From IMG/VR virus record IMGVR_UViG_2923318301_000004: DNA of 24,630 nt; one strand, given 5' to 3'. Below the pieces are notes generated by a model that had not been told where the DNA came from, ran no database searches, and worked only from the letters and a program-made list of their open reading frames with translations. The translations under genes were made by a program, and so were the position numbers. The DNA comes from a virus. Taxonomy: Duplodnaviria > Heunggongvirae > Uroviricota > Caudoviricetes. This document shows, one piece after another, positions 8,870 through 11,139 of this stretch (position 1 is the stretch's first letter; each line of letters starts with the position of its first letter).

Positions 8870-9540
8870 GTGTGCCCGGAGTTCAGGGCGGGCATGGATG
8901 CTTAAATGAACCGCGAGTCTGTCTGGAATATTGAGCCGGTAACTCACGATGAGAAACCCAACAATCCCACCGGGTGTGACGGTGGAGAACCTGAGCGGCA
9001 GTGACCTGCGGCATGCCCGCAGGGTGATGTAACCCGCTGACAACGGGGATTGAGGCGAGATCACTAAGCCGAGATGATCCTCAAGGTTAAGTACTGAAAG
9101 GCTGAAGAACATGAACCCGTTAATCCGCCTCTGTGGGTTGAAAACGTCACCACGGCCTACGTGATCTGACAGGCCGTGCAGGAGGAACTGGCAGTGATAC
9201 GTAAGCACTGCCGGTCGAAGGTGTTTTGACATGTATGCGAAACACCGGGGCAGCAGCGTCTATCACGCTTGCGTTGCTGACTTCTGCCAACTTGCGGCAA
9301 GCAAGGATAAAGAGTGCGACGGGCAGCCTCCTCAGTATGCCTGAGTCCAGGCAGGTAAACCGGGGAAGGTCAGCGACGGATGTTAAGGGGGCATGGCTCC
9401 GATGACGCGCTGGCTGGCGGAGCTTCCGTAGTAGTCCGCGATGGGGAAAGCCCATTACATGGCGAAGGGAAGCAGTTTGAATGTGTTTGCGACGTGAATT
9501 AACTGACCTAACGAGGTGAAGACCTTTGATAATCAGCGAA

Positions 9541-11049
9541 ATGCAACGCAAGCTTGCCACATGGGCAGTCACCGATCCGTCCCTACGGATTCAACGGCTG
9601 CTGCGTCTGATAACACAACCAGAATGGCTGGCTGAAGCGGCGCGGATCACGCTTTCATCAAAGGGGGCCCATACCCCCGGCGTTGATGGCGTGAACAAAA
9701 CAATGCTACAGGCCAGACTGGCTGTTGAGCTGCAAATCCTCAGGGATGAATTACTCTCAGGCCACTACCAGCCCTTGCCCGCCAGACGGGTTTACATCCC
9801 TAAAAGCAACGGCAAACTGCGACCACTGGGTATCCCCGCGTTGCGGGATCGTATTGTTCAGCGGGCCATGCTGATGGCGATGGAGCCGATATGGGAGAGT
9901 GATTTTCATACGCTCTCATATGGCTTCCGGCCTGAGCGCAGTGTCCACCACGCGATCCGCACGGTGAAATTACAGCTCACAGACTGTGGTGAAACCCGGG
10001 GACGCTGGGTGATTGAAGGCGACCTGTCCAGTTACTTCGACACCGTACATCATCGACTGCTGATGAAGGCTGTACGCCGCAGGATCAGTGACGCACGTTT
10101 CATGACTCTGCTGTGGAAAACCATCAAGGCGGGACATATCGATGTCGGTCTCTTTCGGGCGGCCAGTGAAGGTGTGCCACAGGGCGGTGTTATATCGCCG
10201 CTATTATCGAACATCATGCTGAATGAGTTCGATCAATACCTGCATGAGCGCTACCTGAGCGGGAAAGCCAGAAAAGATCGGTGGTACTGGAATAACAGTA
10301 TCCAACGGGGCCGAAGTACGGCGGTCAGAGAAAACTGGCAGTGGAAACCCGCGGTGGCGTACTGCCGCTATGCCGATGATTTTGTCCTCATCGTCAAAGG
10401 CACCAAAGCACAGGCGGAAGCCATCAGGGAGGAGTGTCGGGGTGTGCTCGAAGGCAGTCTGAAACTCAGGCTGAACATGGATAAGACTAAAATCACCCAT
10501 GTTAATGACGGCTTTATCTTTCTGGGGCACAGGATCATTCGCAAACGCAGTCGTTATGGCGAGATGCGAGTGGTCTCAACGATCCCGCAGGAGAAAGCCA
10601 GAAACTTCGCCGCATCGCTGACAGCACTGTTATCAGGCAACTACAGTGAAAGCAAAGTCGATATGGCTGAACAACTCAACCGAAAACTGAAAGGCTGGGC
10701 CATGTTCTATCAGTTCGTTGATTTTAAGGCCAAAGTCTTCAGTTATATCGACCGTGTCGTGTTCTGGAAGCTGGCTCACTGGCTGGCCCGCAAATACCGT
10801 ACAGGTATCGCTTCCCTGATGAGGTGGTGGTGTAAATCACCGAAACCGGGTCAGAGCAAAACGTGGGTTTTATTTGGTAAAACCAATCACGGCAAGCTCA
10901 GCGGCGAAATACTGTACCGGTTGGTGGGGCAAGGCAAGAAGCTGTTCCGCTGGCGGCTACCCGAAGGTAATCCCTATCTGAGGACGGAGACCAGAAACAC
11001 GTATACATCGCGCTTTACAGAAGTGGCAATGGCGTTCGCCAGCATTTAA
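9541..11049 (+). CDS. Group II intron-encoded protein (reverse transcriptase/maturase)
   Basis: RT motifs in order (RPLGIPALRDRIVQ; SYGFRPERS; YCRYADDFVLIV) followed by a maturase (X) domain; start assigned to the first ATG (MQRKLATW...) rather than the TTG at 9526 used by the ORF track. Confidence 0.85.
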   Translation: MQRKLATWAVTDPSLRIQRLLRLITQPEWLAEAARITLSSKGAHTPGVDGVNKTMLQARLAVELQILRDELLSGHYQPLPARRVYIPKSNGKLRPLGIPALRDRIVQRAMLMAMEPIWESDFHTLSYGFRPERSVHHAIRTVKLQLTDCGETRGRWVIEGDLSSYFDTVHHRLLMKAVRRRISDARFMTLLWKTIKAGHIDVGLFRAASEGVPQGGVISPLLSNIMLNEFDQYLHERYLSGKARKDRWYWNNSIQRGRSTAVRENWQWKPAVAYCRYADDFVLIVKGTKAQAEAIREECRGVLEGSLKLRLNMDKTKITHVNDGFIFLGHRIIRKRSRYGEMRVVSTIPQEKARNFAASLTALLSGNYSESKVDMAEQLNRKLKGWAMFYQFVDFKAKVFSYIDRVVFWKLAHWLARKYRTGIASLMRWWCKSPKPGQSKTWVLFGKTNHGKLSGEILYRLVGQGKKLFRWRLPEGNPYLRTETRNTYTSRFTEVAMAFASI

Positions 11050-11053
11050 ATGG

Positions 11054-11087
11054 AGAGCCGGATGCGCTGAAAGGTGCACGTCCGGTT
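11054..11087 (+). ncRNA. Group II intron domain V (catalytic hairpin)
   Basis: GAGCCGGATGCGCTGAAAGGTGCACGTCCGGTTC: about 34 nt, AGC triad near the 5' end, 2-nt bulge, GAAA tetraloop, immediately after the IEP stop codon and about 50 nt from the intron 3' end. Confidence 0.65.
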
Positions 11088-11139
11088 CGGGGAGGAGAGG
11101 CAGGGAAATAGTCCGACTACGCCCTGCCTCTTACTCTAC

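Follow-up and report, generated by a model that had tools for sequence, protein, structure and literature searches.

The stretch of DNA analysed here, hereafter the window, comprises the 24,630 nucleotides of a viral record assigned to the Caudoviricetes (IMG/VR record IMGVR_UViG_2923318301_000004). On its plus strand, at positions 8075-11654, lies a copy of the insertion sequence (IS) IS629 that measures 3580 bp with, and 1310 bp without, an insert in its transposase gene orfB. We find that this insert, 2270 nt at 8870-11139 on the plus strand, is a full-length, sequence-intact group II intron of bacterial class A, E.c.I4, lying in the sense orientation in IS629 orfB, and we put the probability of this reading at about 95%. 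The discovery value is small, as the element, its class, its IS3-family target and its annotation are already in the literature and in RefSeq; E.c.I4 in IS629 has been described, catalogued and annotated before and is not novel. Our additions are modest, namely the empty and filled alleles of the locus, the differences in exon-binding site 1 (EBS1) across IS3-family hosts, and a set of more divergent relatives.

The host has the ~1.3 kb length, the inverted repeats, the orfA/orfB arrangement with a -1 frameshift and the DDE (rve) transposase of IS629, and is labelled 'IS3-like element IS629 family transposase' by PGAP. Its terminal inverted repeats, TGAACCGCCCCGGG..., match at 23 of their first 25 positions. 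The first gene in the list of open reading frames (ORFs), orfA (8129-8455, + strand), encodes 108 aa with an HTH_Tnp_1 domain (Pfam PF01527, E = 7.4e-13), and the ALIL pseudoknot, which in IS3-family elements signals the programmed -1 frameshift, lies at 8410-8526 on the same strand (Rfam RF01497, 120.2 bits against a gathering score of 50). The second gene, orfB, falls into two exons on the plus strand: exon 1 (8452-8869) ends with ...WVADFTY and the G of a Val codon, while exon 2 (11140-11612) opens with the TC of that codon, continues with STWRGF... and holds most of the rve catalytic core. The insertion point therefore follows ...GAT TTT ACT TAC G of orfB, directly past the codons of the W-x-x-D-x-T-Y motif that IS3-family transposases conserve. 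Joining 8452-8869 to 11140-11612 in silico gives a single OrfB of 296 aa that reads ...WVADFTYVSTWRGF..., with the Val codon split G|TC and with both the HTH_21 and the rve integrase-core domains; in DNA the ligated junction reads ...TTTACTTACG|TCAGCACATGG (8869|11140). A preliminary description of this DNA had proposed a precise insertion whose deletion (8870-11139) restores the transposase frame (FTYV|STW), which is what the 296-aa protein bears out. Moreover, the junction is exact to the base, since the spliced 1310-bp element reproduces uninterrupted IS629 at 100% identity in one alignment piece, with many such copies on E. coli chromosomes and plasmids.

Compared with these uninterrupted IS629 copies (IS3 family, IS51 group), the window element is thus alike in its 1310 bp, repeats, ALIL pseudoknot, frameshift and rve domain, whereas it differs in having its orfB split by the intron and in its flanks. 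No 3-bp target-site duplication of IS629 was found at the window locus, where TAC borders the element on its left side and CTC on its right, and the element has therefore gone through an IS-mediated rearrangement (or an adjacent deletion), which bears on the history of this copy and not on its identity as IS629. Its left neighbour is a truncated IS100kyp istB (7661-8026), and its right junction removes the C-terminus of a frameshifted tyrosine-recombinase (integrase) pseudogene at 11618-12756. As the same IS629 junctions (8071-8074 and 11655-11658) are also present in an intron-less allele of the locus, the rearrangement is older than, or independent of, the intron.

The intron itself begins with GTGTG (GUGUG in the RNA) at 8870-8874, the sequence from 8870 being GTGTGCCCGG, and ends with AC at 11138-11139, the stretch up to 11139 being ...CCTCTTACTCTAC (...CTCTAC); both ends agree with the conserved group II boundaries (5' GUGYG, 3' AY). 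Alignment to the catalogued group II introns of E. coli, a check proposed in the preliminary description, shows that it is identical at 2266 of 2270 positions (99.8%) to E.c.I4-2b of E. coli E24377A (NC_009801 4848623-4850892), the coordinates and naming of which are taken from Table S3 of PMC3522654, with the naming also in PMC3552965. The E24377A copy sits in a different IS3-family element, and the identity spans exactly GTGTG to CTCTAC: the two sequences diverge directly upstream of GTGTG and, save for a shared TC, directly downstream of CTCTAC. Because the copy in another host diverges right outside them, both intron boundaries are independently confirmed, and the GTGTG...AC ends that had been proposed at 8870-11139 hold to the base. 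The four differences from E.c.I4-2b comprise two ribozyme substitutions, at window positions 8935 (domain I) and 9196 (in the stem beside the EBS1 loop), and two silent substitutions in the ORF, both copies being annotated with protein WP_001189123.1. Table S3 gives copies of E.c.I4 a length of 2270-2271 nt (PMC3522654); we considered an intron of 2271 nt, as in some rows of that table, and rejected it, as only excision of 2270 nt restores both the frame and the uninterrupted IS629.

E.c.I4 is known to have specific insertion points within transposase genes, namely those of IS629, IS911, ISEc16 and ISEc31 (Leclercq & Cordaux 2012, PMC3522654), so that the earlier remark that group II introns target IS629-type elements in E. 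coli and Shigella is correct and refers to this intron. Both E.c.I4 and S.f.I1 are placed in class A, a class without an endonuclease domain (Toro & Martinez-Abarca 2013, PMC3552965), an assignment that for E.c.I4 is also found in Table S2 of PMC3522654. The classes whose intron-encoded protein (IEP) lacks an endonuclease domain are A, C, D, E and F (PMC3552965). Our literature search found no experimental paper on E.c.I4. The arrangement of an intron in IS629 reportedly goes back to work by Knoop and Brennicke and by Ferat, Le Gouar and Michel, both in 1994.

At the 3' end of the intron, the Rfam family RF00029 Intron_gpII, which covers domains V-VI, matches 11053-11139 on the plus strand with 64.9 bits against a gathering score of 40 (E = 6.6e-11), which upholds the domain V-like hairpin noted earlier; this family and the ALIL pseudoknot are the only above-threshold Rfam families in the window. 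Domain V (11055-11088, 34 nt, + strand), placed by the Rfam alignment, reads GAGCCGGAUGCGCU-GAAA-GGUGCACGUCCGGUUC and has the AGC triad, a 2-nt bulge and a GAAA loop, and domain VI (11091-11137, + strand) carries a bulged A11133, the presumed branch point, as the 7th nucleotide from the 3' end. Two pairs of domain V are compensatory (G-C to U-A and C-G to U-A double changes in the Brucella and Salmonella copies), four pairs of domain VI are preserved by double changes in the Brucella homologue, and the two domains jointly fold with a z-score of -5.8 against shuffles.

For the remainder of the ribozyme we aligned six sequences, namely the window copy and those of E24377A, a Yersinia pestis pMT plasmid, a Klebsiella IncN plasmid, a Salmonella pESI-like plasmid and Brucella anthropi. 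The RNAalifold consensus of these six homologues gives, all on the plus strand, a domain I at 8875-9364 closed by CCCGG/CCGGG, a domain II at 9369-9418 (helices 23-26) and a domain III at 9422-9473 (helices 27-28), the latter with 100% of its cells paired and five pairs with compensatory change; domain IV (9474-11054), which contains the IEP gene, is placed by its position between domains III and V. Over the 185 pairs upstream of the ORF, that is, domains I-III and the hairpins opening domain IV, 94.5% of the cells are standard-paired. Compensatory pairs number 27 of 185, against 8.2 +/- 2.2 in column shuffles (0 of 500 reach 27) and 2-12 in slid registers, a support that derives from the same six-sequence alignment as the structure itself, with a partly misaligned Brucella row and with EBS/IBS (intron-binding site) pairing as the tertiary contact considered. 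The secondary-structure modelling of six domains that had been proposed as a check of the intron thus finds a multi-helix fold of domains I-III, a domain V and a domain VI with its bulged A, all with covariation.

The IEP gene, annotated as ltrA and encoding a reverse transcriptase (RT)/maturase, lies at 9541-11049 on the plus strand and specifies 502 aa from ATG 9541, or 507 aa from TTG 9526. Its product has an RVT_1 domain (E = 1.5e-34) and a GIIM, or maturase X, domain (E = 1.3e-10), scores 341 bits against the cut-off of 300 for the NCBIfam equivalog TIGR04416 of group II RT/maturases, and retains the YADD active-site motif (10369-10380), so that the intact RT/maturase ORF reported earlier stands. 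The IEP is identical to WP_001189123.1, as annotated in a RefSeq record identical to the window, and the solved proteins nearest to it are LtrA (5g2x, E = 2.2e-52) and other group II RTs. In the last ~105 aa a Pfam search at E <= 10 finds only the tail of GIIM and no HNH endonuclease domain, as is also the case past residue ~426, and this C-terminal part has no Cys/His clusters.

The start codon of the IEP is ambiguous, because in RefSeq the Brucella protein begins with the TTG and its E. coli counterpart with the ATG, 15 nt further downstream. The Shine-Dalgarno sequence GAGGTG (9513-9518) precedes TTG 9526 by 7 nt and the annotated ATG 9541 by 22 nt, and a fully conserved hairpin at 9513-9526 (helix 9513-9517/9522-9526) encloses both the Shine-Dalgarno sequence and the TTG. 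The 23 nt from GAGGTG to ...ATAATCA, GAGGTGAAGACCTTTGATAATCA, are invariant even in the 72%-identical Brucella copy. In Ll.LtrB, domain IVa is the site of IEP binding and of translational autoregulation; by analogy, the conserved hairpin in the start region probably doubles as a binding site for the IEP.

Recognition of the target appears to follow the usual pairing between intron and 5' exon. EBS1, CGTAAG (9200-9205), occupies the terminal loop of a hairpin, where it is preceded by A9199 (feature 9199-9205, + strand), and matches the last six bases of the exon, CTTACG (IBS1, 8864-8869), in 6 of 6 positions with Watson-Crick pairs. CGTAAG occurs only once in the intron, and the stem of its hairpin (helix 19) has four compensatory pairs. 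Upstream of IBS1 the exon offers a tentative IBS2, GATTTTA (8857-8863; IBS2 and IBS1 together 8857-8869, + strand), which occupies positions -13 to -7. The candidate EBS2, TGAAAAC (9139-9145, + strand), likewise tentative and likewise occurring once in the intron, matches it in 6 of 7 positions with one G.U and one mismatch, and is modelled within a hairpin helix (9133-9141/9147-9153), not in a free loop. Other registers were tried for EBS2, namely GAAAAC/GATTTT (5/6) and UGAAA/UUUUA (5/5), and the 7-nt register was preferred as the best, again tentatively. Finally, A9199 could pair with T11140, the first base of the 3' exon, a base that is T in all homologues.

All six aligned copies, the window intron and its five homologues at 72-99.8% identity, split an IS3-family transposase at the same codon position, after W-x-x-D-x-T-Y. 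As the coding sequence of W-x-x-D-x-T-Y is conserved, one intron lineage can use many IS3-family hosts. In alignments of IS3 transposases and retroviral integrases, the first Asp of the DDE triad falls within this motif. The EBS1 loop has an altered sequence in relatives from other IS3-family hosts: in the Yersinia and Klebsiella variants it carries GATATG, where the host exons end in CCTATC and CTTATA, respectively, giving matches of 5/6 and 4/6. The window itself holds two further IS3-family elements in which the homologous site is unoccupied. One is an IS3 (6163-7334, - strand), whose W..D.TY site would match EBS1 in 4 of 6 and EBS2 in 4 of 7 positions; the other (1253-2392, + strand), with a single transposase ORF of 379 aa, would match EBS1 in 5 of 6 (one G.U) and EBS2 in 3 of 7, weaker than IS629.

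The intron is widespread. Among 5426 complete E. coli genomes, 2346 (~43%) have a match, which is full-length in 1873; 2721 E. coli records carry it at >=99% identity, and copies at 100% identity are found in hundreds of records. It is also present on 1833 plasmids (Escherichia 971, Klebsiella 347, Salmonella 169, Enterobacter 112, Yersinia 68, and others), in ~1400 of them at >=99% identity. In public annotation the copies appear as 'ltrA: group II intron reverse transcriptase/maturase' flanked by 'IS3 family transposase', and the RefSeq record that is identical over the whole 24.6-kb window lists ltrA at 9541-11049, two IS629 pseudogene halves and the ALIL pseudoknot. We point out that what is listed here as two 'IS3 family transposase' pseudogenes is a single IS629 orfB in two exons, and not a pair of decayed genes.

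More distant relatives are found on a Y. pestis pMT plasmid (95%), a K. pneumoniae IncN plasmid (92.8%), a Salmonella pESI-like plasmid (85.6%) and a plasmid of Brucella anthropi (72%). As relatives at 72-95% identity exist, class A is broader than the 'three nearly identical members' of the papers of 2013-2014. Some of these copies are incomplete: the Y. pestis pMT copy ends after ~1160 nt beside the phospholipase D (ymt) gene, and the Salmonella pESI-like copy starts with GTATA and looks degenerate. On pO157-type plasmids (NC_002128.1, pO157 Sakai, 65790-65865) only the first 76 nt of the intron are present, at 93% identity and inside an IS629 feature, and this segment appears to be an intron remnant.

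The locus of the window exists in two states. A query of 2110 bp, made up of the spliced IS629 and the flanks on both its sides (window 7675-12054 minus the intron), matched 100 complete E. coli genomes with a coverage of >=80%; among the matches listed, the 15 best were end-to-end, in one piece and at 100% identity. The counterpart of window 7675-12054 in the empty allele is, for example, 12001-14110 of a locus from NZ_CP023834.1. The filled allele is present in at least 107 complete genomes, which match the whole 24.6-kb window at ~100% identity. In strain 4/2-1, the single empty genome examined, the annotation shows IS629 with its transposase gene intact and subject to a programmed frameshift, and the flanks are 99.9% identical to those of the window over 7959 bp on the left and over 1841 bp on the right. 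Some genomes with the empty allele hold the intron at other loci, e.g. strains 4/2-1, 219 and EJN001. The locus is thus a natural, precise presence/absence polymorphism at an orthologous site, and this fits recent retrohoming into a resident IS629 or, alternatively, gene conversion between IS629 copies.

From this anatomy we can outline how the intron would work. Transcription of IS629 would yield a precursor from which the ribozyme, assisted by the maturase, would be excised via branching at A11133. With the greater part of the rve core encoded by exon 2, only the spliced mRNA would yield the OrfAB transposase, and it follows from the anatomy that splicing would be the only route to a full-length OrfAB from the window copy. 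The resulting lariat-IEP particle would pick other IS629 copies via EBS1/EBS2-IBS1/IBS2 pairing and reverse-splice into sense-strand DNA. As the IEP has no endonuclease domain, the intron would have to rely on replication-fork primers, with cDNA synthesis primed by nascent strands at replication forks, in the way in which RmInt1 and other endonuclease-less introns operate. It is plausible that the window copy is still mobile, and the polymorphism of empty and filled alleles, along with the thousands of near-identical copies, supports this indirectly.

The closest of the known systems are E.c.I4 and S.f.I1 themselves, under their names in the Zimmerly database (class A, Escherichia and Shigella), which have the same length, host gene class, position and endonuclease-less IEP as the window intron, the E.c.I4-2b copy differing from it by four substitutions. 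RmInt1 of Sinorhizobium meliloti resembles the window intron in having an endonuclease-less RT/maturase and a natural homing site within an insertion sequence, whereas it belongs to class D instead of A, resides in ISRm2011-2 instead of IS629, and has had its mobility dissected experimentally. Ll.LtrB of Lactococcus lactis (class ML/IIA) likewise has its ORF in domain IV and recognizes the 5' exon by EBS/IBS pairing, but its LtrA protein of 599 aa has DNA-binding and endonuclease domains and performs target-primed reverse transcription from its own nick, unlike the IEP of the window with 502-507 aa and neither domain.

Several points weigh against our interpretation of the window copy as class A intron E.c.I4 in working order. 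We infer both splicing and retrohoming of this copy from what group II introns are known to do, and the IS629 that carries it is rearranged at this locus. Membership of class A is adopted from the literature through near-identity to E.c.I4 and not from a phylogeny, and the EBS2/IBS2 assignment is made tentative by its internal mismatch. None of the Rfam models for domains I-IV matched over 8800-11200, even at E <= 1, and the structure of domains I-III therefore rests on comparative folding, that is, on the six-sequence consensus; the permissive search of this interval returned the domain V/VI family, sub-threshold plastid D5 models and one chance CRISPR-DR match (E = 0.92). The presence/absence polymorphism, finally, could stem from gene conversion between IS629 copies, with gain or loss of the intron in either direction.

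This last point leads to the rival explanation that the intron is intact in sequence but spreads passively, through recombination or gene conversion among IS629 copies, transposition of the 3.58-kb IS629::intron unit and plasmid transfer, with no need for ongoing retrohoming. There is material for such a process, since the IS629 parts on either side of the intron offer 795 and 515 bp of flanking homology, and recombination partners are plentiful, with a median of 4 and up to 53 IS629 places per genome. The absence of a target duplication at the window copy shows IS-mediated rearrangement at the site, and in strain M217 the 3580-bp IS629::intron unit is found, 100% identical, at a second chromosomal locus, in a pseudogene of a PDDEXK nuclease domain-containing protein beside yhcF, where a clean 3-bp duplication CTT/CTT is what would be expected from transposition of the whole unit. 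However, the intron of E24377A lies at the homologous site of a host that is not IS629 and next to an unrelated exon, which neither recombination nor transposition of IS629 could produce. Furthermore, EBS1 is exactly complementary to the IS629 exon while the EBS1 loop differs in relatives of other IS hosts, and both the ORF and the ribozyme are free of disabling changes. We therefore regard purely passive spread as unlikely, while noting that passive spread and retrohoming are not mutually exclusive, and we favor the reading of E.c.I4 as an intron that is intact and plausibly still mobile.

Whether the insert is an intron at all could be questioned on the grounds that its RT domain has weak, sub-threshold matches to retron and Drt families and that the window does contain, at a distance of 2 kb, a genuine RT gene of a retron St85, so that some other RT cassette, such as a retron or a group II intron-like RT gene, might merely interrupt IS629. 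These matches to retron and Drt families fall far short of the respective cut-offs, however (54 against 235 and 51 against 200), and the canonical domains V and VI above the Rfam threshold, the GUGUG/AC ends, the maturase X domain, the TIGR04416 match, the base-exact excision and the covariation in domains I-III make a cassette of another kind exceedingly improbable. IS elements and multi-copy introns are also classic sources of misassembly, and the junction could in principle be an assembly artefact or a chimera of repeated elements; to this we give hardly any credence, as the 24.6-kb window recurs at ~100% identity in 107 independently assembled complete genomes, and identical IS629::intron units occur at other loci. 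The features seen at these coordinates cannot be put down to chance, and the interpretation of 8870-11139 as a genuine group II intron, E.c.I4, is thus the one we retain.

With regard to its significance, the empty and filled alleles offer a possible natural system for the mobility of endonuclease-less introns in clinical E. coli lineages. Their state, at one orthologous IS629 copy of closely related clinical E. coli chromosomes, may go back to a recent natural retrohoming event of this endonuclease-less class A intron and, together with the ~43% prevalence and the presence on ~1500 plasmids of several genera, E.c.I4 may be actively proliferating now, a suggestion that we make tentatively and at somewhat less than even odds. 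If true, the polymorphic loci could be used to measure natural rates of retrohoming and its strand or replication bias. For genome stability, the 3.6-kb repeat formed by the filled element is a better recombination substrate than the 1.3-kb IS, a point made in PMC3522654.

The surroundings of the element are rich in mobile DNA. Towards the left end of the window, an IS1B copy (159-1072) lies between a truncated glycosyltransferase gene and a truncated gene of an LpxL/LpxP-family acyltransferase, and the matching region of strain 4/2-1 holds intact capU, virK and lpxM. To the right of IS629, the retron mentioned above comprises an RT gene of the St85 family and an effector gene (13211-15131, - strand), as annotated in the identical RefSeq record. 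Its position is a typical hotspot of defence genes, namely the end of a P4-like satellite prophage. The prophage (15759-24630) encodes an ogr/delta-like zinc finger protein, has two psu-like polarity-suppression genes, a TOPRIM/DUF927 primase and an Icd-like gene, and has its integrase at 23368-24630. The degraded integrase at 11618-12756 stands in tandem with this prophage and is part of a second, IS-riddled island, which also carries BCCT transporter, DUF2254 and TetR genes. Where the window has its P4-like prophage, strain 4/2-1 has a different P4-like element.

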